This document shows, in pieces, positions 46,122 to 60,000 of a DNA stretch of 64,000 nucleotides; within the stretch, counting starts at the first letter, position 1; every line of letters begins with the position of its first letter. The translations under genes were made by a program, and so were the position numbers. The stretch lies in assembly GCF_024223415.1 (NCBI RefSeq), contig NZ_CP100500.1. The stretch is one strand, 5' to 3'. The notes under the pieces were generated by a model. It did no database searches. It was not told the DNA's origin and saw only the letters and a list, made by a program, of their open reading frames with translations. Origin of the DNA: Escherichia coli. GTDB lineage: Bacteria; Pseudomonadota; Gammaproteobacteria; Enterobacterales; Enterobacteriaceae.

Positions 46122-46147
46122 AATTAACTACACCATTAACTACACCG
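46122..46147. repeat. attL core: 26-bp direct repeat AATTAACTACACCATTAACTACACCG
   Basis: Identical to 61252-61277; internally two tandem ATTAACTACACC 12-mers. About 50 bp beyond each copy are imperfectly similar. Confidence 0.8.
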
Positions 46148-46987
46148 TTCGGCGCACTGTATGAAACAACGTGGAACAAATAGGCACAAGAAATATAAAG
46201 GCGGGTAATTTTAAGGGGGCGTTGCTGTCGATATGGGGATCCACATAACGGGGCTACCTGGCTTTTTTTCCGGTTAAATGTCAATCAGGCTGGTGGGCTT
46301 TACCTGTTCGGTAGGTGTTATGATTATCGTAATACCTTTCCCCCAATGGGGTAAAAGCATCAACCGTAACGAAAGTCGTTATGGTTGCCACCGATACTCC
46401 AAATTTGGGTATCACGAGTAAGCCCCAAAATCTGGGTGTTACTCTTACTACCCAAACTACGGGTAGTTTCCGTAGTTTCATGGTCGAGTTGCAGATCTGC
46501 AACTCCCCCATCAACCACAGGCGAATTTCCGCCTTCGGTCATTCCTTAATCATCTGCGTAATCATAATGATTATTCAGCCAGCTCAATTTTGAGCTTTGC
46601 TTTAAGTTCAGCGAGTTACCGCGCCGACTTCCTCAAATTGAGGTTTCCGAAAATATCAGTGGGTTAGCGATTAAGCAGATGGATAATTAACCTGCGAAAA
46701 TTTCGCAGGTTACATCAGCGACGTAATTCTCGCTGTTCCTGCCCGGAGGTGTCGACGAATTTCGTCGGAACCTAAGCCTGCCGGGAAGTCCGTACGTTAA
46801 ACGTACGGAGTTAATTCGACATCACACACTACGTTGTCAATTTGCAAAGGAGGGGCGGAAATCACCATACCTGCCACCCTGTCATACAGAAAGGGATTAC
46901 GATAATCGTAACAGGATACAACGCCGCCTGTAATCGTAACCAATTGATTTTTATGATGACGCAAATCTGCGTTATCAGTCCTCAAAG
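46148..46987. other. 840-bp non-coding arm of the island, rich in hairpins and short repeats
   Basis: No convincing ORF. Contains palindromes CCAAATTTGG, GTTGCAGATCTGCAAC, AACCTGCGAAAATTTCGCAGGTT, CGACGAATTTCGTCG, CCGTACGTTAAACGTACGG and TTACGATAATCGTAA, plus three ATCGTAA motifs. Confidence 0.4.
46163..46189 (+). repeat. Phased heptamer array 1 (GAAACAA, GGAACAA, GGCACAA at exact 10-bp spacing)
   Basis: Read directly; lies just inside attL. Confidence 0.7.
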
Positions 46988-47278
46988 TTACCGCCGCAAC
47001 CGTTCCGGCTTCTTCCACTGATAAGTGTTTTTCGCGCTCTCCTGATACATCGCCACGCGTCGACGGTATGCCAGCAACTCTAGTACTCTGATTCGTATGT
47101 CGCGCATATCCACGCCGTTAAGCTCAATACCGTCACGGCGCATCACCTCCGCCACAACACGCACATAATTTTCGGCGGTCACGCTGTCCGGCTGCGTGGC
47201 CTGTTCGTCATGCTGCTGGCTGATTCCGGTAACGCGGCGGATTAATCCCAGTAGTTCGGCTTCGCTCATTCTCGTCAT
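46988..47278 (-). CDS. Hypothetical protein (96 aa), last gene of the packaging operon
   Basis: ORF whose start overlaps the terL stop; no recognisable motif. Confidence 0.6.
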   Translation of the reverse strand: MTRMSEAELLGLIRRVTGISQQHDEQATQPDSVTAENYVRVVAEVMRRDGIELNGVDMRDIRIRVLELLAYRRRVAMYQESAKNTYQWKKPERLRR

Positions 47279-48936
47279 ACCCCATCAAACGCCGCAAGCC
47301 GCTCTTTGTGGCTGTCGCTCATATCGAATGCAAATTCCTCATGCTCTGCCTGGAATGTGCCAAACGCCATCAGCGCCGCAACGCTCGGGTCTATCTTGTT
47401 GGATGATTTTTTCTTGTTCGGCTTGATATTGGCGTTCGCGTCACTCTGCATCACAACATTACTCATTGACCAGGCCAGCACCGGATCACCACGATGCACA
47501 ATCACCTTCCGGTTAACAAAAACTTCGAACGATTTCGCCGCCGGACTGAAACGAAGGTATGTTTGCGGGAACGGCTCCACCTCAAATCCTGCGCCCTGTA
47601 GCTGCGTCATCAGGTGCGTGGCGTTCCATGTATCGAAGCCCACCAGCCGGATATTAAAATTTTCCGCGTCCTTCATGATGTCATCCCTGATACGGTCGTA
47701 ATCAATACAGTCGCCTGGCGTTGTGCGTATCCAGCCCGATTTTGCCCACTGGCGATAGATGGCGCGGTTTTTATTGGCGGGATTCTGTAGCTGCTGCTCC
47801 GGCAGATAATGACGGGAAACCAGCATGATGGTTTTACCAACCGGAAAGGCATAACACACGCTTGAAATATCATTTGTTGATGATAAATCCAGCCCCGCAT
47901 AGCACTCCTGCCCGTGTAAATCTTCCTCCGTGAACGTTCCGGCACACTCAGCCCATGCACCGTTACCCATCCACGGCGTAGCCCCCTGACACCAGATATT
48001 AAAGCGCTTTGTCATCATCTCCACCCACTGCGACGGAATACCCCGCGCTTTCTGGATGGTTGAGGCAAGTTTTTCACGATCGACGGAAACATCGATATTG
48101 GGATTCGCCTTTATCCACATCGCCGGATCGTCAACCTCGCTTTCATCATCCAGCTCGTAAATCATCACGAACATGGATTCATTAACCTCTTCACCATCCA
48201 GTATCTGACAGCAATAATCATAGTGCTGCTTACAGGCAGAAATAACGTTGCTTCCCGATGTGGTAATGGCGAATAACAGCCCGTCAGGACGCGCACCCAT
48301 CCCAAGTTCAAGCGCGGAATATACGCCGTTATCGGGGTGTAAATGGTATTCATCCACAATGGCAAGACTCGGGTTTGTCCCCTCAATGGTCGCCGCCTTT
48401 GCCGCCAGTGGCTTTAACAGGCTGTTGGTTTTCGGGTGTATCACCTTGTGCGCCTGAATATTTACCCGCTTTCGTAACGGTCGGGATAAAAGGCACATCT
48501 GACGCGCATCATCAAACACGATCCGCGCCTGATCACGACTCACGGCGGCGGTGTAAATATCCTGCTGCCCGTTTTCCATAACCAGAAACCAGTTAGCCAG
48601 GATAGCGGCGACCGTGGATTTGGCATTTTTTCGCGGTACTTCAATGAATGCGCTGGTGTATTTGCGCCGTCCGGTGGACTTAACCTTAAAGCCCAGGATG
48701 CACGCAAAGGCGAACTGCTGCCACGGCTCCAGTTCAATGGGGCTACCGCGCATTGCACCTTTTACGTGCGGGCACACCCTGGAAAAGGCAATAAACCGCT
48801 CCACGACCTCCGGATCGAACGTGTAAAGGGGGTTTTCAAGGTCAGAAAAATACCGTTTAACAGCCTGTTTCAGTCGTTTACAGGCCGTAATTTTGCCGTT
48901 TTTTACGCCTTCTGCGTACTCATGCCAGGCGGTCAA
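47275..48936 (-). CDS. Terminase large subunit
   Basis: 553-aa ORF with ATPase N-terminus and nuclease C-terminus typical of Terminase_1 family TerL; overlaps terS. Confidence 0.9.
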   Translation of the reverse strand: MTAWHEYAEGVKNGKITACKRLKQAVKRYFSDLENPLYTFDPEVVERFIAFSRVCPHVKGAMRGSPIELEPWQQFAFACILGFKVKSTGRRKYTSAFIEVPRKNAKSTVAAILANWFLVMENGQQDIYTAAVSRDQARIVFDDARQMCLLSRPLRKRVNIQAHKVIHPKTNSLLKPLAAKAATIEGTNPSLAIVDEYHLHPDNGVYSALELGMGARPDGLLFAITTSGSNVISACKQHYDYCCQILDGEEVNESMFVMIYELDDESEVDDPAMWIKANPNIDVSVDREKLASTIQKARGIPSQWVEMMTKRFNIWCQGATPWMGNGAWAECAGTFTEEDLHGQECYAGLDLSSTNDISSVCYAFPVGKTIMLVSRHYLPEQQLQNPANKNRAIYRQWAKSGWIRTTPGDCIDYDRIRDDIMKDAENFNIRLVGFDTWNATHLMTQLQGAGFEVEPFPQTYLRFSPAAKSFEVFVNRKVIVHRGDPVLAWSMSNVVMQSDANANIKPNKKKSSNKIDPSVAALMAFGTFQAEHEEFAFDMSDSHKERLAAFDGV

Positions 48937-49321
48937 GCTCGTCCTCTTCCTCTGTTTCCGGTGGATTTCTGCGTCGGCTTACCGGGTCAAAACCCAGCAA
49001 AGAAGCCATTTTGATCATTATTCTTTCTGCGTCAGCCTTTGCGCTCAGGGCGGGGTTTCTGCTCTCGCTGCCCTGACTGTTAACAATGCTGAACCCGCGC
49101 GTCGCAAGGTCTTCGACGGCTTTGCGGTATAGGGAGTAGTTAACGCAATACAGCTCAAGATTGCTCCAGTCGGCGGGGGTAAGGTCTTCCCGCCCGGAAA
49201 GCTGGCGCGATTTTTCCTTCCATTGCCTGACGGCAATTTCATCCAGGTAAGCGGGGGCTTTTGGTGGTCTTGCCATGTTCTTTTTTCGCCCAATTATTTT
49301 CAAAAAAATTCCCGTGCACAA
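48920..49321 (-). CDS. Terminase small subunit (P27 family)
   Basis: 133-aa ORF MARPPKAPAYLDEIAVRQWKEKSRQLSGREDLTPADWSNLELYCVNYSLYRKA... resembles P27-family TerS. Confidence 0.8.
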   Translation of the reverse strand: MCTGIFLKIIGRKKNMARPPKAPAYLDEIAVRQWKEKSRQLSGREDLTPADWSNLELYCVNYSLYRKAVEDLATRGFSIVNSQGSESRNPALSAKADAERIMIKMASLLGFDPVSRRRNPPETEEEDELDRLA

Positions 49322-49565
49322 AAATTTGAGCAGGCGGTCGGTTCTGGGCAGGGTCGGGTTCGTCCTGAAAACTCCCCCCCACCCCGTCCGGCTGCCTCAT
49401 CAGCGATTGCGAAAACATTCCATGACCTCGCGGTCACGGTCGGTTAATCGCTTCGCTGTGGTGCGTTTTGTGCGCCCTGTCCTGTTGGCTTTGTGCTCTG
49501 TCTCCTGTGTCTTCCATGTGTCACGCTGCCTTATCAGTCCACGTATCAGCCTGGTTTGCTCCTGT
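49322..49565. other. Predicted cos/packaging-site region between HNH and terS
   Basis: 244-bp GC-rich non-coding gap containing CCCCCCCACCCC (49373-49384). In HK97-type genomes cos lies between the HNH endonuclease gene and terS. Confidence 0.35.
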
Positions 49566-50006
49566 TCAGTCATCATCGCCATACATCCAGTCGTTACGGT
49601 GTGCCGCCCGTTCTTCCTGCTCGCGATACATGCCCGCTTTACGGTTTGCTTTCGTGGCTGGATCTTCCCGTGTGGTCTTACGGTTGTGGCACGTCTGGCA
49701 CAATGCCTGGTGATTCCACTCAGGCCAGAAGAGAACATCATTACCGCCATCGATGGGGATAATGTGATCCACCACCACGGCGGGCGTGTATATTCCTTTT
49801 TCCAGGCAATGCGCACATAACGGGTTTTTACTCAGGTACATAGCGCGGTATTTCTCCCACTGCCTCGTATACCCTCGCTCCCTGCTGCTGCCTCTCCGGC
49901 TGTCCTGCTGCTGGCGTGCGCTGCGTCTGTGCTCCTCACACTTCCCGGACTTCACGCGCCTGTTGCAGCCTGGTTGTGTGCATCGTCTCAATGGTTGCCA
50001 CGGCAT
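49566..50006 (-). CDS. HNH endonuclease (terminase-associated)
   Basis: 146-aa ORF with Cys-rich zinc finger and HNH motif (CAHC...DHIIP...NHQALCQTCHNRK). Confidence 0.85.
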   Translation of the reverse strand: MPWQPLRRCTQPGCNRRVKSGKCEEHRRSARQQQDSRRGSSRERGYTRQWEKYRAMYLSKNPLCAHCLEKGIYTPAVVVDHIIPIDGGNDVLFWPEWNHQALCQTCHNRKTTREDPATKANRKAGMYREQEERAAHRNDWMYGDDD

Positions 50007-50302
50007 CAGTACACCCCCACATCACGATAAACCGACCAGAGCGCGGAAATCGTCAGGGGAATTTCTTTTGTATCGGTATCGCCAAGCGTTGTCCGGTACT
50101 CGTACAGTTGCGAGATGTACATCAGGCAACCAATTTTTATTGCAGGGGTAAATTCCAGGCCGTCATCAAAACGCCTGCCAATATGCTTCTGGCATACCTC
50201 CAGCGCCGCGCTTATGTATGCCTGAATCAGTGTGTCTTCTGTGTTACCATCTATGCGGCAGTGAAGTTTGGCCTCTTCCAGGGTTATTTTTTCTGCTGTC
50301 AT
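50006..50302 (-). CDS. Head-tail connector protein (phage gp6-like)
   Basis: 98-aa ORF MTAEKITLEEAKLHCRIDGNTEDTLIQAYISAALEVCQKHIGRRF... typical of the gp6-like connector family. Confidence 0.7.
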   Translation of the reverse strand: MTAEKITLEEAKLHCRIDGNTEDTLIQAYISAALEVCQKHIGRRFDDGLEFTPAIKIGCLMYISQLYEYRTTLGDTDTKEIPLTISALWSVYRDVGVY

Positions 50303-50637
50303 TTTTCTGTACCCACCTTTGCCAGAATTTCCAGCCGGGTTCTTTTCGCATCAGGTAAGGGGATCCCGATGATATTAAGCGTGCTCCCGGCAAAAGCGCC
50401 GGTAAGCACTTTCAGGCGACTGGCGGCGGATATGTCGCCACGATAGCGAACCCATACCCGAATCGTTGCAGGTGCGGTTTCTGCGCCTGCGGTCAGTAAT
50501 TCCCGTCCGCTGATCCCCTTGACCTCTGCCCAGATGGTTTCCCCTTCCGTCCATATCTGCTGGATCGCACCTGACGGCAGGCGCTGTGTGGTAAATGTCA
50601 TAATCGTCACCCGGTCCCGCATCTTTCCGGCTATCAT
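50299..50637 (-). CDS. Head closure / head-tail adaptor protein
   Basis: 112-aa ORF between portal and gp6-like gene with overlapping start and stop. Confidence 0.65.
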   Translation of the reverse strand: MIAGKMRDRVTIMTFTTQRLPSGAIQQIWTEGETIWAEVKGISGRELLTAGAETAPATIRVWVRYRGDISAASRLKVLTGAFAGSTLNIIGIPLPDAKRTRLEILAKVGTEK

Positions 50638-51851
50638 TCGTCACCGCCCTTACTGTTCTTGCTGATTGTCACTTCCTGCTTCCATGCCTGGCTGAACTCG
50701 TCGCCACCTTCACGCGGCGGCATTCCCTCACGCTCACGGGCTTCGTTCGGATTGATGATCCCGTTCTTAATCCCTTTCTCATACGTGGCGTAACGTTCGG
50801 TAGGGGTGGCGCGTAATAAATCGGCTGAATCAAACTCAACCAGATAACGGGTACCAGGTACGGGAGAAGCCACCAGCAAAGCAGCCTTGATTTGCTGTTC
50901 GAAGTTCGCCAGCCACGGGCGCATTGTCATGGTCAGAAACGCGCGGCTTGCCTCACTGAAATTGCTGTAGGTGCTGTTGCTGTATTCCTGCAAAAAAATC
51001 GGCGAGACGTTGAACATTCGGGCGATGTCTTCAATGGTAAAGCGACGGGAGGCCAGCCATTCAGCATCCTGATTACTCATGCCCAGCTGCTGATAGCTCA
51101 TACCCCCTTCAAGGATGGGCGTTTTTCCGGCGTTTCTGGCCCCTTTGTAGCGTTCCAGTGCGGCTAATGCCTGTTTGCCCTTCACGCCGTCCAGCCATTC
51201 GCCTGACGTGATAACCCCTGCCGCCATCATGCCATCACGCATCACGCTCGCGCCGTGGCGTTGTTGGGCCAGCCCAAGCCCCAGCGATTCGCGGCAGATG
51301 GTTACAGGTGAGCGCCCCATAAAGCCGTCATCCGTGGAGTAACGAAGGTGGAGAACCTCCCACGGTAAATAGTTGCGGGTGTTTCCGGTGTAGGCGTCAG
51401 TGATGCAGTAGCGCCAGTTATGCTCACCTGTCTGCTCCACGTTCACCGACTGCGGCGGGTAAGGATGTAAAGCCACCGGAAAACCATCACGCCCCCACTG
51501 AATAACCGCATAAGCATTACCGTTTAACAGGCAGTGGCGGATCATCATTCGCTTAAACTGGTAGGGGGTTTGCCATGCGTTCGGGCGCTCGTTGAGGATG
51601 TGATCGACCGGATGAGAATCAAGCCACTCGCGGGCCTCCTTCCCCTTCTCATTGCGTACCAGGTACAGGTAACACGGCATGGTAGCCACCGCCTCAGAGA
51701 TGACCGTCACGGCGTTCATGACGGCGGGCAGTGATTCCGCTGTCCCCGATGATACGTACTCACCCGCCCCCGTGTTCGATGTGCCCGCCAGCGCCATAAA
51801 TTCATCAAGCGTCATGCTGCGCTGCTCTTTTTTTCTTCTGAAAAGCCACAT
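50634..51851 (-). CDS. Portal protein (HK97 family)
   Basis: 405-aa ORF; alternative start MTLDEFMALAG at 51815. Confidence 0.85.
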   Translation of the reverse strand: MWLFRRKKEQRSMTLDEFMALAGTSNTGAGEYVSSGTAESLPAVMNAVTVISEAVATMPCYLYLVRNEKGKEAREWLDSHPVDHILNERPNAWQTPYQFKRMMIRHCLLNGNAYAVIQWGRDGFPVALHPYPPQSVNVEQTGEHNWRYCITDAYTGNTRNYLPWEVLHLRYSTDDGFMGRSPVTICRESLGLGLAQQRHGASVMRDGMMAAGVITSGEWLDGVKGKQALAALERYKGARNAGKTPILEGGMSYQQLGMSNQDAEWLASRRFTIEDIARMFNVSPIFLQEYSNSTYSNFSEASRAFLTMTMRPWLANFEQQIKAALLVASPVPGTRYLVEFDSADLLRATPTERYATYEKGIKNGIINPNEAREREGMPPREGGDEFSQAWKQEVTISKNSKGGDE

Positions 51852-51852
51852 A

Positions 51853-52425
51853 TCACACCCCCGCTAAATCCACCCACCAGCGGCGATTATCCGCACGCGG
51901 CATTTTTTCGGGGTGCTGCTCATACAGGGAACGGCGGGCCAGCTCCACGCCGGAATCGGGGTAAGCCGGTACCGATGTAACGGTAATTTCGTACAGTTCC
52001 GCCACCAGCACGGTACGAACGCATGGATCTGTTGTGGTATCCCATACATCCTTACGGGAGCGAAAGCCAAAGCTCATGCCGGATATATCACCGCGTTTAA
52101 CCAGTTCGATAACGTCGCGCCCTGTACTGGTATCCGGTGGGGTCAGTTCAAAGCGTAACCCTGTTTCGTCCTCTTCCAGTTTCAGCGTGCCGGAACGGGT
52201 GCGCCCCAGTAACATGCTGTGGTCATGCTCATACAGGCCGCGAACGTCATTACCCGCCGCAAGCCATTCAGTAAACGCCCCCCGCTGGAATTTTTCGTAA
52301 AACTCACCCCATAACAGTTCTGAAAGCTTATCCCAGCGAACAACGTAGCCCGTCAGCGTACCGGCTCCGCTCGTGGTGATTTCCGATGACCGGATTTCCA
52401 TACTCTTCATAATTTTTTCACCCAT
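51853..52425 (-). CDS. Prohead protease (HK97 family)
   Basis: 190-aa ORF between capsid and portal genes; resembles HK97-type prohead protease. Confidence 0.8.
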   Translation of the reverse strand: MGEKIMKSMEIRSSEITTSGAGTLTGYVVRWDKLSELLWGEFYEKFQRGAFTEWLAAGNDVRGLYEHDHSMLLGRTRSGTLKLEEDETGLRFELTPPDTSTGRDVIELVKRGDISGMSFGFRSRKDVWDTTTDPCVRTVLVAELYEITVTSVPAYPDSGVELARRSLYEQHPEKMPRADNRRWWVDLAGV

Positions 52426-52464
52426 AAAACACTAAAGGGGCTTTTAAGCCCCTTCTGTATGCTG

Positions 52465-53622
52465 TTAATCGTCGTCCTGTGGCAGTTCCAGAATCTTGAT
52501 CGCGTTCGAATCCACCACGCCACCGCCTAAATATTTCTGCGTGAAAATTTTGATGAAGCCCGGCTCTGTGATGTTGTCCGGTCTGGTGCGAACACCTGTT
52601 TCGTGATCAACAATGTAGTAACCGCGTTTGAAGTCACCCAGGGCAATAACGTTATCAGGCATAAACTCCAGATATTCGACCGGAAGGCCCAGCAACGTAT
52701 CAGGATCACCCGCCTGTAAACGGTCGCGCCAGATGTAATCACCGTTCGCGTTCTTCACCTTCTGAAGTTTTGCCGCCGTTGTGGAGTTAACCACCCATAC
52801 CGCGTTCTTGCGGTATTTTTTACGCAATGCAAATTTCAGGTCGATCAGCGGGTCCGCAGATGTCCACGCCAGACCGTGAGCGGGCTTGATAACCTGCAAC
52901 GTTCCGAAGTCGCGTTCTTTGTCGCTCTTCTCTGCACGGGGGACGGATAAAAAGCCTTTTGCTTTTTTGTCACCGTCGCCCACAACCAGATCGCTTTCTT
53001 CGGTTTCCGTGAAGGTGTCGCCAATCTCGGCCGTCAGCCATGAAAGGATGTCCACATCGGAAAAATCCACGATTTCCTGTGTGGTGCGCGGGTACGCATA
53101 GACCGGATACAGCTTAATGCTCACCTCGTTAATCTGCGGGGTGCTGGTCTGTTCGCGTGCCTTACCCTCTTCACCGTGGTTAACGGTCGCACCGCCAGCG
53201 GAAACAAGCTGCTTAAACTCGTTGCTGCTGATTTTCTTCACGGTACAGATGCGGCGCATGGTGGATTCATCCGCCAGCATTCGCATGATTTCGGTGTTCA
53301 GTTCGGGGATAACGGTATAACCACCATCAGCGGGAACGCCTGTACTTAATGCGCGGGTTTCACCTGTCAGAATGTAGTTGCGTAGTTCTGCGGGGTCAGT
53401 GGTCTGACTGCTTTTACCTGGCTTGCTGCGCTCTTCGTCTGCAATGGCTTCAAGGCGGGAAATGTCTTTATCGAGGGATTCAGCTTTAGCGCGTAATTCA
53501 TCAAATTTTGCGCCCTCAGCATCGTTAAGACTGCGGTTTTCTTTTTCCGCGTTCTCCAGCATGTCGCGCATCTGATTTTTAATGGCGGTTTTCTGCTGGC
53601 GTAATTCGATTATTCTCGGCAT
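52465..53622 (-). CDS. Major capsid protein (HK97 fold)
   Basis: 385-aa product from MPRIIELRQQKTAIKNQMRDMLENAEK (ATG at 53622): N-terminal delta/scaffold-like coiled coil then capsid domain. The track ORF extends to a TTG at 53667. Confidence 0.85.
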   Translation of the reverse strand: MPRIIELRQQKTAIKNQMRDMLENAEKENRSLNDAEGAKFDELRAKAESLDKDISRLEAIADEERSKPGKSSQTTDPAELRNYILTGETRALSTGVPADGGYTVIPELNTEIMRMLADESTMRRICTVKKISSNEFKQLVSAGGATVNHGEEGKAREQTSTPQINEVSIKLYPVYAYPRTTQEIVDFSDVDILSWLTAEIGDTFTETEESDLVVGDGDKKAKGFLSVPRAEKSDKERDFGTLQVIKPAHGLAWTSADPLIDLKFALRKKYRKNAVWVVNSTTAAKLQKVKNANGDYIWRDRLQAGDPDTLLGLPVEYLEFMPDNVIALGDFKRGYYIVDHETGVRTRPDNITEPGFIKIFTQKYLGGGVVDSNAIKILELPQDDD

Positions 53623-53836
53623 AAAAAAAAGTCCTGGGGTTAAGTAAGGAACTCCAGGACGCGGCAAAAACTCAACCGTTTTTCATAAGGAAATCAGCAA
53701 TCGCACCGATCGTTTTCCCGCCTGGTAATGAATATTGGCGAGCACATTAACAGGCGGGAAAGTGGCCCCAGCGTCCTGGCACCACGGGCGAGAATAATCA
53801 TGATTCAGTTCGAGTAAAATATGCCGATCCGCTCAG

Positions 53837-53863
53837 TGAACAACCTGGAACAACCACGAACAA
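53837..53863 (+). repeat. Phased heptamer array 2 (TGAACAA, GGAACAA, CGAACAA at exact 10-bp spacing)
   Basis: Read directly; lies in the divergent region between the capsid gene and the moron. Confidence 0.7.
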
Positions 53864-53937
53864 ATAATTTACAAAACCTGAAAAAATAAATAAACTGTTC
53901 CGTACATTTTCTGCTCGTTAATCAGGAGGAACGAACT

Positions 53938-54411
53938 ATGTCAGAAAATGAACTGAAAAAAGCAATGTTCATTCAGCAACGATTGCAGATTCTCCACCTT
54001 GGTAAACACTATGATGAGTTCAGTGATTCTTACGTGTATGCCTGGGAGGCAGATGTTTATCCTTTCTTGCAGGATGGCGACGGAAGTATTCCTGCTCGCC
54101 CACATGAAATTTACGAAGAGTTTTTCGGCACATCTAAAAACAAAGCCAAAAAGATATACGATCGTCTGTGCAAAGCCTGGCACGACCAGGAGGCACTCAC
54201 ATTCTATAAACTAGAAAGTGAATATGGTGTAACAAGTAGCAGCATGCACAGATGGACACGAAGTGATTTACTTCACATCTGCCGCTATCTGTATCTTGAG
54301 GGGTGTTTCGATAAAGATTTCTGGGAAACATTACTGGAAAACGGAAAATGCCCAAGCGAAGCACTTTACCTTAGCGATGAATTTAATCGCGATACAGAGA
54401 TCGACTTCTAA
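53938..54411 (+). CDS. Hypothetical protein (157 aa), moron cargo gene
   Basis: Only + strand gene in the island interior; strong SD (CAGGAGGAACGAACTATG); own hairpin terminator; visibly lower GC than flanking genes; acidic C-terminus; no recognisable motif. Confidence 0.7.
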   Translation: MSENELKKAMFIQQRLQILHLGKHYDEFSDSYVYAWEADVYPFLQDGDGSIPARPHEIYEEFFGTSKNKAKKIYDRLCKAWHDQEALTFYKLESEYGVTSSSMHRWTRSDLLHICRYLYLEGCFDKDFWETLLENGKCPSEALYLSDEFNRDTEIDF

Positions 54412-54416
54412 AAAAA

Positions 54417-54446
54417 TGGCCTGGAAAATACCAGGCCATTATTATT
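54417..54446. terminator. Bidirectional terminator after the moron
   Basis: TGGCCTGG-aaaata-CCAGGCCA hairpin flanked by an A-run and a T-rich tract. Confidence 0.8.
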
Positions 54447-54734
54447 CTACCGTTTCACGGGATCACGCATTCTGCGCCTTATTTTCCACAGATATTCGAT
54501 CATCGCTTCCACCTGCTCACGGTTGGTTGCGAAAATTTCCCCGGTCAGTGAGCTACGCAGAAAATCATGATGATCCACAAAAAATAACGCATCGGAAGAA
54601 AGCAGCCGGAGATATTTTTTTGCTGTCGTGCTTTCCAGATCATCAAAATCATGAAGCTTTTTATGTTGCTGGACTTCTTCAAATGTCACTGGCATGTTTC
54701 CTCCTGCTACCACGATACCAGAAACAGTTAACAA
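54447..54734 (-). CDS. Hypothetical protein (95 aa)
   Basis: ORF at the distal end of the leftward replication operon; no motif recognised. Confidence 0.55.
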   Translation of the reverse strand: MLTVSGIVVAGGNMPVTFEEVQQHKKLHDFDDLESTTAKKYLRLLSSDALFFVDHHDFLRSSLTGEIFATNREQVEAMIEYLWKIRRRMRDPVKR

Positions 54735-54740
54735 CCGTTA

Positions 54741-55022
54741 TCAATTATCCCCTTTTTTAGGGTAGTTCCTGAACATCTCACCGCCAGGCTTCTGTAAGCC
54801 CATCCCGGTATGTGTGCGGTTTATGGCCTCTTTCAGTATTCCGAAATTATCCGGTATGACTGGTGGGCGTGCTGCCTTACGGATACATTCCGCGCGACGC
54901 TTTGCCACTTGTTCGCGCTCCTTGTCAGTGCTCACCAGCCACATAACATCAGCCCATCGCGCGGCCGCCCTCCGGTAAAATCCTTTCGCCTCCAGTTCCT
55001 CCGCTATCCGGTCATGTACCAT
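54741..55022 (-). CDS. Hypothetical protein (93 aa)
   Basis: Start placed at ATG 55022, 10 nt after the ssb stop (the track ORF extends into ssb); MVHDRIAEELEAKGFYRRAAARWADVMWLVSTDKEREQVAKRRAECIRKA... Possible small regulator; unverified. Confidence 0.5.
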   Translation of the reverse strand: MVHDRIAEELEAKGFYRRAAARWADVMWLVSTDKEREQVAKRRAECIRKAARPPVIPDNFGILKEAINRTHTGMGLQKPGGEMFRNYPKKGDN

Positions 55023-55032
55023 CGTCACCCCC

Positions 55033-55443
55033 TCAGAACGGAATATCATCACCGTAAGGGTCATCGCCTCCCGCTGGTGGCTGATTACCCTGTGTGCCTG
55101 TGGTTTTGCGTCTGTTCCCACCAGGACGTGCCGCACGCGCACTGATTACGCTGTCTGCGATAACCTGCCAGCCCTGCCGCGTTTCCCCGTTCTGTCCGGT
55201 CCACTGGCTGACCTGCATCGTGCCGGATACGCTGGCAACGTCGCCTTTTTGATGTTTAGCCAGAAAGTCGGCCTGTTTGCCAAATGCGATGACCGATAAC
55301 CATAACGTCGCCTGTCCGTCCTGTGCCTGGCCGCATGGTAAAGATACCGCCATACGCGCCAGCGTCATCGGTGTACCCTTACTGGTCTGTTTTACCTGCG
55401 GGTCGTCCACCAGCCGCCCGTAAGCTGCAATTTGTGCTGTCAT
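55033..55443 (-). CDS. ssb: Single-stranded DNA-binding protein
   Basis: 136-aa ORF with OB-fold-like core resembling E. coli SSB and the C-terminal acidic tail ...DDPYGDDIPF. Confidence 0.85.
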   Translation of the reverse strand: MTAQIAAYGRLVDDPQVKQTSKGTPMTLARMAVSLPCGQAQDGQATLWLSVIAFGKQADFLAKHQKGDVASVSGTMQVSQWTGQNGETRQGWQVIADSVISARAARPGGNRRKTTGTQGNQPPAGGDDPYGDDIPF

Positions 55444-55452
55444 ATTGCCACC

Positions 55453-55758
55453 TCAGTGAAGCGATCCGGCGTTGTTCTTTTTCATCTCTTCCATCATTTT
55501 TTCAGTGAGCATTACGCACTGAAAACCCATGTTTTTGATGTCTACGGGTTTCATGCCTTTGTCAGTGGATATCACAGGCAGAATATCCTGATACACATCG
55601 CCGCCAGGGTAACTAAGCACACAAAGCGCCCATGATGCCACGGGTGAGGATCCTTGGTCTGTTTCAACCCACCAGCCTGGTGTAGCTGCGCTTATTTGCA
55701 GAATCGTGATCCGTCCGTTGTGCTTGTAAAATTTTTCACCACATTTTGGTTCGCTCAT
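55453..55758 (-). CDS. Hypothetical protein (101 aa)
   Basis: ORF between ssb and the origin. Confidence 0.55.
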   Translation of the reverse strand: MSEPKCGEKFYKHNGRITILQISAATPGWWVETDQGSSPVASWALCVLSYPGGDVYQDILPVISTDKGMKPVDIKNMGFQCVMLTEKMMEEMKKNNAGSLH

Positions 55759-56036
55759 GCTTCCACCTCTCCGGTTTTAACGTTGATGGTTGTCACCTGT
55801 TCCGCTCCGGCAATCTCCCGTTCTGTCAGCGTGGCAAAATTTGCCGCTACCGTTGTCATGAATGCGCTTATCAGTTCGGGATGTGCTTTCGCGTATCCTT
55901 CTCCCGCGTGGCGGTCTATCGTTCTGATTGCCACCTTTAAGGCGTGCTCTGTCATGTCTAACGCTTTATATTTTGGCGCTGTCTTATCTCTGGTTTTTCT
56001 GTTCATTCCCCACCACTCCCCACTTTTGCTCCCCAC
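55755..56036 (-). CDS. Hypothetical protein (about 83-93 aa)
   Basis: ORF immediately downstream of the iteron array; true start probably the internal MNRKTRDK (56006) because the upstream codons lie within the iterons. Confidence 0.45.
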   Translation of the reverse strand: MGSKSGEWWGMNRKTRDKTAPKYKALDMTEHALKVAIRTIDRHAGEGYAKAHPELISAFMTTVAANFATLTEREIAGAEQVTTINVKTGEVEA

Positions 56037-56221
56037 TTTTTAAATTCCCCACTTGCTCCCCACCTCGTTTTTTGAGTGAATCTAATGCTTTGTTTTTCAT
56101 TGCGTTTTTTGCTCCCCACTTTTTTGGATGTATACAGGTGGGAAAGTGGGGAATTATGTTTCAATTTTGTTAAATTCCCCACTCTCCCCACTTTTACTAC
56201 CCACTTTTTACAGTGGGTAAA
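56007..56221. repeat. Iteron array, putative replication origin of the island
   Basis: At least 9 direct copies of (C/T)TCCCCAC(TTTT) at irregular spacing plus 3 inverted copies (AGTGGGGAA, GGTGGGAAA, CAGTGGGTAAA) with A/T-rich spacers, directly 3' of the rep gene. Confidence 0.8.
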
Positions 56222-57614
56222 CATCATCCCCATCGACACAAATCACGCCGTCTTTTTCCAGCTTGTACAGCCAGCGCCGGAAGTGCTTCATCTCATACCC
56301 CAGCTTTTTCATATCGTCGCGGAGAAGGGCGATAGTGCATGGCTCTTTGTGTGCCGTCCGCGTTCTGATGCACTGCCATAGCGCGGCGTGATTCTCCGAT
56401 TTGTTGCCTGCTTCCTCGATGCGCTCCAGTTCAGCAGGGGCGCGGGGAACGTCAATCACCACCATAGACACAATCTCTTCGCCATCTGTATCGGTGAACA
56501 CCTCCACGCTTTTAAGGTCGTATGCACTCTCTTTTGGCTCCTCTGCGTCCTTCATCTTCGTACACGCCGCCACCAGTGCTGTAACGTCTGAATTTTCCCG
56601 GCTGATTCGGTACTCTGCATCAAGCGCGGCACGGAATGCGCTGGAACCACGCGCCCCCTTTGTTTCATCCTTGCCGGAATGGTGAACCACCAGCACCGTG
56701 GCCCCTGTGGCCTGCTTTATCGCGTCACACCCCTGGATAAATGCGCCCATATCACGGGAATCATTTTCATCATTCCCACCAAAGCAACGGGCCAGTGTGT
56801 CGATCACAATCAGCCGCACATTTTCGCCCGTTCTGCTCTTAACAAGTCCGGCAGTCCTGATAACCTGCTCCACATAGTCAGGCGATGCAGGGAAAACAGG
56901 CGCGTTAATGATGCACAAATCTGTAACCACCTTGTCGTGGGTTATCTCCCACGCCTTAACGCGGCGTTTTACGCCCATGCTGCCTTCACCAGCGATATAG
57001 ATAACCGCCCCCTTACTTACCCTGCGGCCTCCCCATGCCATACCTGTGGCAACATGGCACGACCAGGAAATGGCGAGGAACGATTTATAAGAACCGCTGG
57101 CCCCGTAGGTGCTGCATAATGACTCAGCCGGAATAAGCCCCTTAATTACGTAGCTTTGCTGCGCGTCGAATCCCTCAGAACCCCATGAGATGGGAAGCGT
57201 GATTTTTCGCTTTCCGCCATTCATGACCAGGCTTTCCCCTCTCTCCCATGTTTCCCGTAGTCGTGGTAGCTGGTCGCTCCAGTCCTCCAGCAGTTCGAAA
57301 TTTTCAGAAAGTAGCCGCGCCTCCTGGACTCCGGCGATCGCCAGTTTTGTGGCAATGGTCAGCATCTGCATATCGTCCAGGTTTCCGGCGCGTATGACCT
57401 TTGCCCTGTATCGTCCTTCATCAACAATCTGTAAGTTGTCCAGTTCGCTTAACTGATAACGGCCCAGGTAAACCGGAGGGATGGGATCGCCTGCTTTTTT
57501 GGCCTGTGCAATCATGTAATGTTCTGCAAAGGAGTGAGCATTATCACCCGCAAAAATAACCGCCTCAGTGTGTTTATCTTTCGGTAACAGTTTTACGTTC
57601 GGTGCAAGTTTCAT
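56208..57614 (-). CDS. Replication initiator / RepA-like P-loop ATPase (AAA_25-type helicase domain)
   Basis: 468-aa ORF with central P-loop-like segment (YGASGSYKS...LIVIDTLARCF...VLVVHHSGKDETKG), the pattern of RepA/DnaB-like helicases; N-terminal 150 aa unassigned. Confidence 0.7.
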   Translation of the reverse strand: MKLAPNVKLLPKDKHTEAVIFAGDNAHSFAEHYMIAQAKKAGDPIPPVYLGRYQLSELDNLQIVDEGRYRAKVIRAGNLDDMQMLTIATKLAIAGVQEARLLSENFELLEDWSDQLPRLRETWERGESLVMNGGKRKITLPISWGSEGFDAQQSYVIKGLIPAESLCSTYGASGSYKSFLAISWSCHVATGMAWGGRRVSKGAVIYIAGEGSMGVKRRVKAWEITHDKVVTDLCIINAPVFPASPDYVEQVIRTAGLVKSRTGENVRLIVIDTLARCFGGNDENDSRDMGAFIQGCDAIKQATGATVLVVHHSGKDETKGARGSSAFRAALDAEYRISRENSDVTALVAACTKMKDAEEPKESAYDLKSVEVFTDTDGEEIVSMVVIDVPRAPAELERIEEAGNKSENHAALWQCIRTRTAHKEPCTIALLRDDMKKLGYEMKHFRRWLYKLEKDGVICVDGDDVYPL

Positions 57615-57898
57615 TTCTTACCCCCTGCGACCAGCATTTCACGGATTTTGCGGATATAACTTGCAGCACGTTTCTGATTAACGGCTTTACGATGGCCCAC
57701 CAGCGTGAAATCACGCCGGAACTGATAAACAGGCATAACGCAGTCATATTCGTAGCCTTCACGGCGGTAAGTTACGCGACGTTCCTCCACGCTTTTAATT
57801 GTTACCGTGCCGCCGTAGTTATCTTTGAAAATATCGCCGGGGCGGATTTCAGGCCGAGCGGGGCCGCTGGCAGTAAAGCCAGAATATTTAAGTTTCAT
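57611..57898 (-). CDS. Hypothetical protein (95 aa), translationally coupled to rep
   Basis: Stop overlaps the rep start. Confidence 0.55.
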   Translation of the reverse strand: MKLKYSGFTASGPARPEIRPGDIFKDNYGGTVTIKSVEERRVTYRREGYEYDCVMPVYQFRRDFTLVGHRKAVNQKRAASYIRKIREMLVAGGKK

Positions 57899-57903
57899 TA
57901 TTT

Positions 57904-58137
57904 TTATTCTCCGGTGTGCTGTTCTTTATATCTGTCGTGCAATAGGTCTATTTCCTGCAACTCTGTTATTACAGGTTCAAGGAGAGTTATCAGAGATTTA
58001 ATAATCCGCGCATTCTTTACATCACGCTCATTATCGCCAAATGTATCTGGATACATTTGCAATATTTCGTACATACCTTCAGCGTAAGCAATGGCACTAA
58101 ATGCGCGGTCTATTGTTTCGAGGTAAATATCACGCAT
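57904..58137 (-). CDS. Hypothetical protein (77 aa)
   Basis: Tightly packed with flanking small ORFs on the same strand. Confidence 0.5.
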   Translation of the reverse strand: MRDIYLETIDRAFSAIAYAEGMYEILQMYPDTFGDNERDVKNARIIKSLITLLEPVITELQEIDLLHDRYKEQHTGE

Positions 58138-58138
58138 A

Positions 58139-58387
58139 TTAATCCCCGTCCGTCGTTTTTCTTAAAATAACCTCTGTCACGAAATCAGCATAATCGGCGG
58201 CGATATTCAGTACATCAAGCCCCGTTGATTTATATTCTCTCGTGGAAAGTAAGAAAAAAGCCGCTCTAATAAGCTCTGGCATTGACGAAAGCGCATCAGC
58301 CGCATCATCAGGAACGCCGGAAAATTCCTGTTTCAGGGAATTAAAACGATCATCACGCATAACCCCCCCCATTTTCACAATCAGCAA
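58139..58387 (-). CDS. Hypothetical protein (about 73-82 aa)
   Basis: Tightly packed small ORF; start may be the internal Met at 58360. Confidence 0.45.
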   Translation of the reverse strand: MLIVKMGGVMRDDRFNSLKQEFSGVPDDAADALSSMPELIRAAFFLLSTREYKSTGLDVLNIAADYADFVTEVILRKTTDGD

Positions 58388-58634
58388 TCAGGATGGCTTT
58401 GGCCTCATTCAGTGCCATATCAGCGGTAAGCTGTGCGTAGGCCAGCAAATGCGGGATTATTGCCCCTGTATATTCCGTCTCTCTGGTAATGTGTTTTTCT
58501 GCGGTTGCTGCCGTGCATGAAATATCAATCAGCGCGTGCATCAGCGTTTTGATGGCTTCGGCGGCTGCGTCCGGACGGGTGTTATTGCACATGGCACACC
58601 TCCTGACGGATACGGGCGGCGAATACAGCGACAC
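58353..58634 (-). CDS. Hypothetical protein (up to 93 aa), first gene of the leftward early operon
   Basis: ORF immediately downstream of the divergent promoter region; start uncertain. Confidence 0.4.
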   Translation of the reverse strand: MSLYSPPVSVRRCAMCNNTRPDAAAEAIKTLMHALIDISCTAATAEKHITRETEYTGAIIPHLLAYAQLTADMALNEAKAILIADCENGGGYA

Positions 58635-58872
58635 AACCGGACGGGCAACGGTTACGCGCTTCGCGTTCCGTCCAGGCGGTCACGTGGATAATTTGAGATT
58701 CTCCGGCACTCAGTGCCAGAAAACGCCACACAAAGGCGGTTTGTGTGTGCGCTAGTCGTGGGGTATGCTGTGTTCCAGCCATAATCGTTACTCCTGTTAA
58801 CGGTTTGGTTAGACGCCCTGCATGTGTTACAGCACTGCGGGGCGTTGTCTTTTTAACGGCTTTCGTGATAGG

Positions 58873-58914
58873 GTGTACACCTATCAAGCAAAAAAATAAC
58901 GCTATAGGTGTACA
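58873..58914. promoter_or_regulatory. Palindromic operator overlapping the RHH gene start
   Basis: Perfect 12-bp inverted repeat GTGTACACCTAT (58873-58884) and ATAGGTGTACAC (58903-58914), each half containing the self-complementary GTGTACAC; ends 1 bp before the RHH ATG. Confidence 0.7.
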
Positions 58915-58915
58915 C

Positions 58916-59110
58916 ATGTCAACAGTTATTAAGCGAGATAAAAAACCAAAGGGAACAGGAAAAGCCCCCCCATTCCATATGCGAATAGCTCCAGAACTGA
59001 AAGAGCAGTTTGATAATGAGGCCAGCAATGATGGGGTAAGCCTAGCCAACTGGCTTAAAGAGTTGGGACGCAGTGAACTGAAGCGGCGCGGTATAGAACC
59101 CAAAGGTTGA
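58916..59110 (+). CDS. Ribbon-helix-helix (Arc/MetJ-type) DNA-binding protein, candidate island repressor
   Basis: 64-aa product MSTVIKRDKKPKGTGKAPPFHMRIAPELKEQFDNEASNDGVSLANWLKELGRSELKRRGIEPKG fits a beta-strand plus two helices RHH fold; divergent from the early operon. The track ORF 58745..59110 is an upstream extension. Confidence 0.6.
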   Translation: MSTVIKRDKKPKGTGKAPPFHMRIAPELKEQFDNEASNDGVSLANWLKELGRSELKRRGIEPKG

Positions 59111-59267
59111 TAGCCCACCAGCAAGCCAGGACACTGATCACATTGGCCACCGTGACAGGTGGCCTTTTCTTTGCCCGTTATCCGGCAATTGTGGCGCTTC
59201 GCCACACGGTTGATATAATCCCACTGCTCATATTCATTTTTTGCGCAGCAGGTAAATTGTTCAGAAA

Positions 59268-59296
59268 GGCGGCTCCTTATCGGGGCCGCTTTTTTT
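59268..59296 (+). terminator. Rho-independent terminator downstream of the RHH gene
   Basis: GGCGGCTCC-ttatc-GGGGCCGC hairpin (one G-U wobble) followed by TTTTTTT. Confidence 0.7.
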
Positions 59297-59437
59297 ATGC
59301 CTGAAAAACCGCGATTTTGTTGTTTTTCAGTTTCACAAGGCCGAACGAAGCCCCGCCCCTGTTCCGGCGTATATCCAGTCTTCATGGTTAAATCTCTGTA
59401 TTAGTGGATGGGTGGCGGCTGTGTGCCGCCAGTCTTT

Positions 59438-59626
59438 TTAGTGAACTGCCTCGCAGCTTTCCTTCCATGCCAGAACTTCGGATAAAGACCAGCCAACGGA
59501 ACGACCGCCCAGCTTACGCCGTGATGGGAATTGTCCGGCCTTTTCCAGGCGGTAGCGGCATGAGCGGCTAAGCCCTGTTAGCTTTTCGCATTCTTTTTCA
59601 CGTATAAAACGATCAGTGCTTAACAC
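59438..59626 (-). CDS. alpA: AlpA-family transcriptional regulator
   Basis: 62-aa ORF MLSTDRFIREKECEKLTGLSRSCRYRLEKAGQFPSRRKLGGRSVGWSLSEVLAWKE with the AlpA/MerR-like HTH pattern; sits next to the integrase as in P4-like elements and PICIs. Confidence 0.8.
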   Translation of the reverse strand: MLSTDRFIREKECEKLTGLSRSCRYRLEKAGQFPSRRKLGGRSVGWSLSEVLAWKESCEAVH

Positions 59627-59908
59627 TATTGCCCCCTTTCGTTTCTTAAAGAGTTATTTCGTGTTCTATTGCGTTGGTATGTGTCTGATTGTGTCAGGGT
59701 GATTCAGAGTTGGCAAATGTTGATGGCGGGTATTTTACAGAAACGGGGTGATTTTAATAAAAAACATTTTAATTCAGTATTATGCAAAGGCATAAAATCT
59801 CGTTTCATGCCTTTTTTCTCACTATTTAAAGCGTTATTCGCTAATGTATAAAAAACCAGTTGAGCATTAAAAATCAGCAACTTATAAATCTGTATATTTT
59901 TTGGCCTC

Positions 59909-59955
59909 TTGTTCGTGGTTGTTTCACGTTGTTGCGTATTGTTGCACGTTGTATC
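59909..59955 (-). repeat. Phased heptamer array 3 (five copies at exact 10-bp spacing, opposite orientation)
   Basis: Plus strand reads TTGTTCG, TTGTTTC, TTGTTGC, TTGTTGC, TTGTATC, the reverse complements of CGAACAA, GAAACAA, GCAACAA, GCAACAA, GATACAA; lies between the int stop and alpA. Confidence 0.7.
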
Positions 59956-60000
59956 TGTGCACTTATCCAGTATGCGCATACTGAAAAAACACGAAAAAAA

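Follow-up and report, generated by a model that had tools for sequence, protein, structure and literature searches.

A chromosomal island of the capsid-forming PICI (cf-PICI) type in Escherichia coli very probably has its own cohesive-end (cos) site, of the HNH-dependent type with a 10-nt 3' overhang, located within 49277-49399 of the window, the 64,000-nt stretch of DNA that was analysed. The head and packaging genes of the island lie on the minus strand of the window, and alignment with the mapped cos sites of phages places the gene-strand nick at 49331|49330 and the complementary-strand nick at 49341|49340, with an uncertainty of about 3 nt. Such a cut would leave the cohesive end CGACCGCCTG. 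The island's site would thus be an ordinary member of a known cos type, its exact cut being predicted from relatives.

The island and its gene content

The island is delimited by the 26-bp direct repeat AATTAACTACACCATTAACTACACCG at 46122-46147 and 61252-61277, and its predicted packaged unit is about 15.13 kb. Its chromosomal neighbours are phoQ on one side and, on the other, a JmjC/ROXA-like gene, which we take to be roxA/ycfD. The genes of the island comprise an integrase (61251-60001), an AAA_25 replication protein and an SSB, together with a PerC-like gene and a full module for head formation and DNA packaging. In the latter, the order on the minus strand is capsid (53667-52465), prohead protease, portal, head-closure, connector, HNH endonuclease, the interval under study, terS and terL, and each head or packaging gene from capsid through terL has a clear Pfam match. 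No tail genes were found among the island ORFs scanned. Judged by its genes, the island would be classed as a capsid-forming PICI according to He et al., and the published cf-PICI organisation (Alqurainy et al., He et al.) corresponds to its gene order, its size and its integrase/replication module. Packaging by cos with the element's own HNH, TerS and TerL has already been published for the cf-PICI family, and in two bioRxiv preprints on these elements the cos site was assumed, not mapped.

Of 5,426 complete E. coli genomes, 512 contain the interval that would carry the site. Its DNA identity to the copies of the O157 type is about 85%, and a copy at an identity of at least 99% occurs in one of the 5,426.

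A PerC-family activator gene (54741-55142, minus strand; PF06069, E = 6e-37) lies directly after the SSB gene. In EPEC and EHEC, the LEE pathogenicity island is under the control of PerC/Pch-type regulators, and the gene in the present island may be cargo of regulatory interest. A 96-aa ORF (46988-47278, minus strand), which overlaps terL by 4 nt and matches phrog_1561, a family of unknown function (E = 5e-55), is the final gene of the packaging operon ahead of the att end. In one chromosomal relative (L221), an extra gene of 187 aa with a weak HNH_3 match (1880-2443) is found between the capsid and protease genes, and resembles the insertion of a homing endonuclease into the head module.

The interval between the HNH gene and terS

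A sequence-only reading of the window had proposed a cos site in a GC-rich, non-coding gap of 244 bp (49322-49565) containing a G/C tract, between the HNH gene and terS. The stretch is flanked by the stop codon of the HNH gene (49566-49568, minus strand) and by the longest ORF for terS, and its location between these two genes is borne out by the coordinates and by Pfam (PF01844 and PF05119). It is not, however, non-coding throughout, since 49400-49582 is a conserved 60-aa ORF of the family phrog_3173, and about half of the supposed gap is therefore a gene. On the other side, the start of terS is most likely the ATG at 49276, which yields the 118 aa annotated in homologues, rather than the TTG at 49321, because the indels found in relatives upstream of the ATG are not multiples of three. 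With the small ORF on one side and this start codon on the other, the real non-coding gap is 49277-49399 (Table 1), and the functional core lies partly (49294-49321) outside the interval first proposed. The description as GC-rich stands to the extent that the GC content of 49322-49565 is 57.4% against 50.6% for the island, but the excess is modest and close to the 53-59% of the neighbouring coding sequence. The tract CCCCCCCACCCC was correctly located, and occurs only once in the window, at 49374-49385 on the plus strand. When one mismatch is allowed, shuffled sequences contain a mean of 0.17 matches and at least one match is seen in 15 of 100 shuffles; the tract alone is therefore weak evidence.

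Table 1. Features of the island and of its predicted cos region, in window coordinates; identity is the mean pairwise identity among eight divergent representatives.
Feature	Position	Strand	Identity	Remarks
Whole cf-PICI-type island, 15.16 kb	46122..61277			Bounded by 26-bp direct repeat
terL, large terminase (ATPase and nuclease domains)	47275..48936	-		PF03354, PF20441
terS, P27-family small terminase, 118 aa	48920..49276	-		PF05119 Terminase_4; TIGR01558 sm_term_P27 above curated cut-off
terS N-terminus			0.83	
Non-coding gap, 123 bp	49277-49399			Between small ORF and terS
Block B, CTCAAATTTTT..GCACGG..ATTTTTTTGAAAATAA	49294..49330	-	0.89	Highest of the region; left genome end CTCAAATTTTTGTGCACGGGAATTTTTTTGAAAATAA; holds predicted TerS-binding site
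Candidate TerS recognition site CACGGGAATTTTTTT	49302..49316	-		+15 to +29 from predicted nick; by analogy with HK97
Predicted 10-nt cohesive end CGACCGCCTG	49331..49340	-		3' overhang on gene strand; from alignment with mapped cos
Block A, GGGGTGGGGG..GTTTTCAGGAC	49362..49385	-	0.88	GGGGTGGGGGGG (49374-49385), one base, GTTTTCAGGAC (49362-49372); 22-55 nt before nick
Small basic arginine-rich ORF, 60 aa (MAMMTEQEQ...ECFRNR)	49400..49582	-	0.53	phrog_3173, E = 5.9e-27; function unknown
HNH endonuclease gene, 146 aa	49566..50006	-		PF01844, phrog_144; upstream neighbour of cos
HNH C-terminus			0.75	

The start of the small ORF overlaps the 3' end of the HNH gene by 17 nt, and its stop lies 14 nt ahead of the G-tract. 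In homologous loci it is called a hypothetical protein by the NCBI RefSeq annotation pipeline. The ORF is intact in 52 of the 58 unique relatives scored and frameshifted or truncated in the other six, and it is absent from both the L057 lineage and the Pasteurella element Pmp8. In its conserved C-terminus (ERDRExxECFRNR) the changes among relatives are mostly synonymous. It might correspond to the "hypothetical gene 1792", whose mutation severely reduced the transfer of EcCIEDL933. The phrog_3173 protein, found in most enterobacterial cf-PICIs, might also serve as an accessory factor that acts on the conserved block A, described below, and aids in discriminating between island and helper DNA.

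Conserved blocks of the gap

Alignment of 59 unique HNH-to-terS intervals, drawn from IMG/VR loci, two E. coli genomes, one phage record and the window, reveals two strongly conserved blocks within the gap (Table 1). Across relatives from E. coli, Klebsiella and Pasteurella, blocks A and B are more conserved than the flanking genes even though they are non-coding, which argues that they constitute a cis-acting site. The stretch adjoining the terS start codon is the least conserved part of the gap (0.58). Both blocks also occur in the Pasteurella cf-PICI Pmp8, the TerS of which is about 60% identical, and a G-tract is found at the equivalent place in HK97, HK106, phi1026b and SfII.

Block A of the window carries one G more than any aligned relative. 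Since the block is positioned just before the cut, where a packaging run ends, a role as a termination or nuclease-positioning signal is presumed; it could act as a signal for termination in the manner of cosQ, or provide HNH or TerL with a docking site. It is conceivable, albeit on balance doubtful, that the G-tract together with GTTTTCAGGAC represents a distinct and undescribed cis element of HNH-dependent cos sites.

Block B, at the left genome end, would hold the recognition site of TerS, for which CACGGGAATTTTTTT is proposed by analogy with HK97. This assignment is weak, because the TerS of HK97 is not related in sequence to that of the island; homology between the two proteins was accordingly dropped as support, and the assignment is retained as an analogy. 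Two other candidate elements were considered. An IHF consensus core (TCAANNNNTTR) that overlaps the left end was judged by eye, and no commitment is made to it, as it sits at the nick and not beside it. A palindrome around GTGCAC was rejected as a symmetric nicking site, being specific to the window copy and not conserved.

The two sides of the site also vary differently among relatives. Within loci L099-L230, contigs with an identical 60-nt left end, from block B to terS, display at least 17 different right ends over the 140 nt left of the nick, where the variation involves the C-terminus of the small ORF, the spacer and the overhang. This diversity of ends suggests that recombination breakpoints cluster at cos.

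Alignment with the mapped ends of phages

The cos site of HK97 is HNH-dependent and produces a 10-nt 3' overhang, and its minimal TerS site extends from +15 to +29 and is read via one G and the adjacent A-tract (PMC11331095). In the Burkholderia phages phiE125 and phi644-2, the right cohesive end is 5'-CGCCCGCTTC-3', a 10-base 3' extension (PMC2920897), and the database record of phi1026b terminates in CGCCCGCTTC. Ten sequences, namely seven cf-PICI gaps together with HK97, phi1026b and SfII, were aligned by MAFFT, and the alignment is nearly gap-free from the G-tract to the A/T tract. The two ends of the HK97 record (...GGGCAGGGGGGGGGATCAAATCTTCAAAACCTTTGCCCCAAATGACCGCCGCCAAA and GTTTGAATTTAACGCTAACCCGATTTTTTTAG...ATG of terS) and those of the phi1026b record (...GGTGGGGAGGGGGGGAGAAAAAGTCTGGAAGGCGCTGCCTTCGGGACCGCCCGCTTC and GTCAAATTTTCACGCCCGCGAAATTAAAAATT...GTG of terS) meet in one and the same column, which corresponds to 49331|49330 in the window. 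The columns of CGACCGCCTG are those of the mapped phiE125/phi1026b overhang and of the last 10 nt of the HK97 record.

The similarity to the Burkholderia phages extends to the sequence itself. A profile built by nhmmer from 42 unique cf-PICI gaps, with the database size set to 100 Mb for the calculation of E, matched the end-to-end junction of phi1026b only, in an alignment that spans the cut (19.7 bits, E = 0.034); the HK97 and SfII junctions were not matched by this profile. Block B aligns with the left end of phi1026b, GTCAAATTTTCACGCCCGCGAAATT. The proteins follow suit, the island TerS being 34% identical to that of phi1026b (E = 3e-16) and the HNH protein 38% identical (E = 7e-21).

For HK97, the HNH protein of the island is 36% identical to gp74 (E = 1e-16), and the two TerS proteins have no detectable relation (BLASTP E = 7.4). 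In HK97 the T7 tract begins at +24, in the window at +23. The alignment of HK97 with the window has a z of 5.1, a value inflated by shared homopolymer runs, and the resemblance to HK97 and SfII is, as far as the alignments indicate, one of layout. The helper phage HK106 has an HK97-type TerS and a cos almost identical to that of HK97. With its P27 TerS and its HNH gene, the island does not conform to the lambda type of cos (12-nt 5' overhang, cosQ-cosN-cosB, Nu1/A terminase).

Physical ends in relatives

When IMG/VR was scanned by pattern, it yielded a contig of 15,518 nt, IMGVR_UViG_3300022664_000095 (pieces L119 and L236). Its gene set is that of a complete cf-PICI, in the packaged permutation with terS first and the small ORF last. 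The contig starts exactly at CTCAAATTTTT, i.e., at the first base of block B, with the opening sequence CTCAAATTTTTACGCACGG, and its right end reads ...GTTTTCAGGACAAAACCCAAGCCGCAAGGCAC (terminal ...GCAAGGCAC). Integrated relatives have exactly 10 extra nt, CACCCGCCCC, between the two end points of the contig. The absence of 10 nt between the ends is what would be expected of a cos genome with a 10-nt 3' overhang that has been blunt-ended. A 5' overhang would be filled in, and hence present at both ends; that the 10 nt are missing at both ends of the contig rather than duplicated speaks against a filled-in 5' overhang. The 3' polarity assigned to the island's own overhang is deduced from these missing nucleotides and from the relatives. 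The chance that one of the approximately 200 cf-PICI contigs inspected would start at the predicted base is about 1%, ignoring the matching 10-nt gap. The exact-end evidence consists of a single contig, and a metagenome scan with the block B pattern produced 72 further contigs, none of which has an end at the site. Contig ends that lie 10 nt apart at the homologous position are seen in a relative and would be expected of this island, whose predicted overhang CGACCGCCTG differs from the Klebsiella-type CACCCGCCCC at about half of the positions.

Two assemblies from phage preparations are also interrupted in this region. The record of "Escherichia phage vB_KppS-Ant" (L001, LR881103.1) contains a full cf-PICI gene set. 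Its source was a phage preparation for which K. pneumoniae DSM 30104 served as host and which was sequenced with Nextera XT. It was described as a filamentous ssDNA prophage, and is more than 99% identical to a region of the host's genome (PMC8006926). The linear record is missing a stretch of about 69 nt around the predicted nick, some 37 nt to one side of it and some 32 nt to the other. He et al. probably describe this element under the name KpCIDSM30104, and they reported that KpCIDSM30104 DNA forms concatemer bands from cohesive ends. The record of Klebsiella phage P12620-1 (L087, PQ569648.1; 106.5 kb) is a chimeric assembly, in which a cf-PICI segment (90.6-106.5 kb) runs from codon 2 of terS to the small ORF, with the whole gap missing. 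The exact-end contig and both of these assemblies belong to the Klebsiella-type lineage, in which TerS shares about 85% identity with that of the island.

Other sequences were set aside. In a survey of contig ends among the first 80 IMG/VR loci, the ends near the gap (L064 and L070) fell at arbitrary positions; the contig ends of the surveyed loci are uninformative because these loci are mostly prophage predictions from isolate genomes. Metagenome contigs of 15.6 kb with high coverage look circularly assembled. The phage records of AbIPP1, ST64B, EPP-1 and Vibrio K303 either start at or near terS by convention or contain no similar motif, and are likewise uninformative. Salmonella As1 was rejected as a cf-PICI, being a partial ST64B-like scaffold.

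Alternative interpretations

The most conspicuous and nearly invariant motif of the gap is the poly-G/C tract (49374-49385), and cohesive ends in this phage group are known to be GC-rich (PMC2920897). It is nevertheless very improbable that the tract itself is the cohesive end or the cut site: the exact-end contig of the relative runs 32 nt past the G-tract at its right end and begins at CTCAAATTTTT at the other, the vB_KppS-Ant record reads through the tract, and in HK97 and phi1026b the G-tract is situated 42-56 nt before the record ends. In this respect the sequence-only reading requires correction, the tract being a conserved element 34-45 nt inside the right end. The blocks could instead be signals for the expression of terS and terL, whether promoter, operator or translational control, with the packaging site located elsewhere, as they lie immediately upstream of terS and an A/T-rich segment precedes the start codon. 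This too has very little likelihood, given that a consensus scan detected no sigma-70-like site on the gene strand of the non-coding gap, Rfam returned no meaningful match for the gap, and its RNA fold is no better than that of shuffles (z = -0.75). Moreover, the sequence nearest the start codon is the least conserved, while the blocks match mapped cos sites and the contig ends fall between them. A dual role of the blocks, in both packaging and expression, is possible. On the gene strand of the gap no terminator was found, and one terminator-like hairpin is located inside the small ORF. In the antisense direction, a sigma-70-like match (TTGCCA-16-AATTAT; 49270-49297, plus strand) extends over the terS start and block B; its mean in shuffles is 0.4, and it probably occurs by chance.

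Some PICIs and SaPIs employ headful (pac) packaging, under which the interval would be a mere intergenic spacer. Nothing specific to this island points that way, and such a mechanism is extremely unlikely in view of an HNH and P27-TerS gene set typical of cos phages, the cohesive-end concatemers reported for a relative (KpCIDSM30104; He et al.) and the relative's contig with defined ends and a 10-nt gap. A different kind of reservation is that the site is cos by descent, but that this copy, or the island as a whole, can no longer be mobilised. The additional G in block A and the single copy at an identity of at least 99% among the complete E. coli genomes are in keeping with such decay, yet every packaging gene is an intact ORF that matches its family over the full length, and the integrase is intact, as are the att repeats and the two cos blocks; loss of mobility is thus considered unlikely. 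A cos site in the HNH-terS interval, as originally proposed, is supported by conservation, by homology to mapped cos sites and by the contig ends of relatives. The accompanying conclusion, that an island with its own cos would be packaged independently of the helper terminase, holds as well and is already known for the family, in light of published mutants of the EDL933 relative, the unrelated TerS and the differing cos sequence.

Proposed course of packaging

With an active cos site of its own, the excised island (about 15.1 kb) would replicate to concatemers after induction, and its P27-family TerS would bind just downstream of the nick, probably to the G and A/T-tract at 49316-49302. TerL, helped by the HNH protein, would then introduce the two nicks, 10 nt apart, to generate the 3' overhang. 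Packaging would proceed from the terS side, taking in terS, terL, the att junction, int, the replication genes, the head genes, HNH and the small ORF in this order, and would end at the next cos, such that the G-tract/GTTTTCAGGAC block (49385-49362) would be taken in as the final conserved element ahead of the cut. The pairing of individual proteins with individual blocks is presumptive.

For a satellite family that is widespread, the present work predicts the packaging site to the base, and leaves the understanding of how such cos sites work unchanged. A defined cos of about 90 bp would ease the building of cos plasmids and cos-swap constructs, and such constructs could probe how cf-PICIs and HK97-like helpers stay mutually exclusive despite sharing one cos architecture.

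Comparison with known systems

The Burkholderia phages of the phi1026b group possess a site between the HNH gene and terS, a TerS of the same P27 family and a homologous HNH protein. They also share with the island the succession of a G-tract, a spacer of about 40 nt, an overhang of the ACCGCCCGC type and the arrangement (G/C)TCAAATTTT..CGC..A/T-tract, followed by terS. The overhangs themselves differ, being CGACCGCCTG in the island, CACCCGCCCC in the Klebsiella-type relatives and CGCCCGCTTC in the phage. The island, unlike the phiE125/phi1026b type, has the GTTTTCAGGAC half of block A and a small ORF between HNH and cos. The carriers are also dissimilar, since the island is a tail-less satellite of 15 kb and the phage measures 55 kb.

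In HK97 and HK106, too, an HNH-dependent cos separates the HNH gene from terS; the cut, which follows a G-tract by about 45-55 nt, leaves a 10-nt 3' overhang that includes ACCGCC. A T7 tract at +23/+24 is likewise shared, and in HK97 it belongs to the mapped TerS site (PMC11331095). The layout is thus common to the island and to the HK106/HK97 helper cos, whereas the sequences of the overhang and of the left end differ, the latter being GTTTGAATTTAACGC in the island and CTCAAATTTTTGTGC in HK97. HK106 is the experimental helper of EcCIEDL933, and published mutant analysis demonstrated that island and helper packaging genes are each needed solely for their own transfer. The differences in cos and TerS between the present island and the helper would fit this published, mutually exclusive packaging.

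Among the cf-PICIs, EcCIEDL933 has been reported to be induced by its helper and to form its own small capsids, with only the tails of the helper being needed. Compared with EcCIEDL933 and KpCIDSM30104, the present island represents a distinct variant, located at the phoQ-roxA junction.
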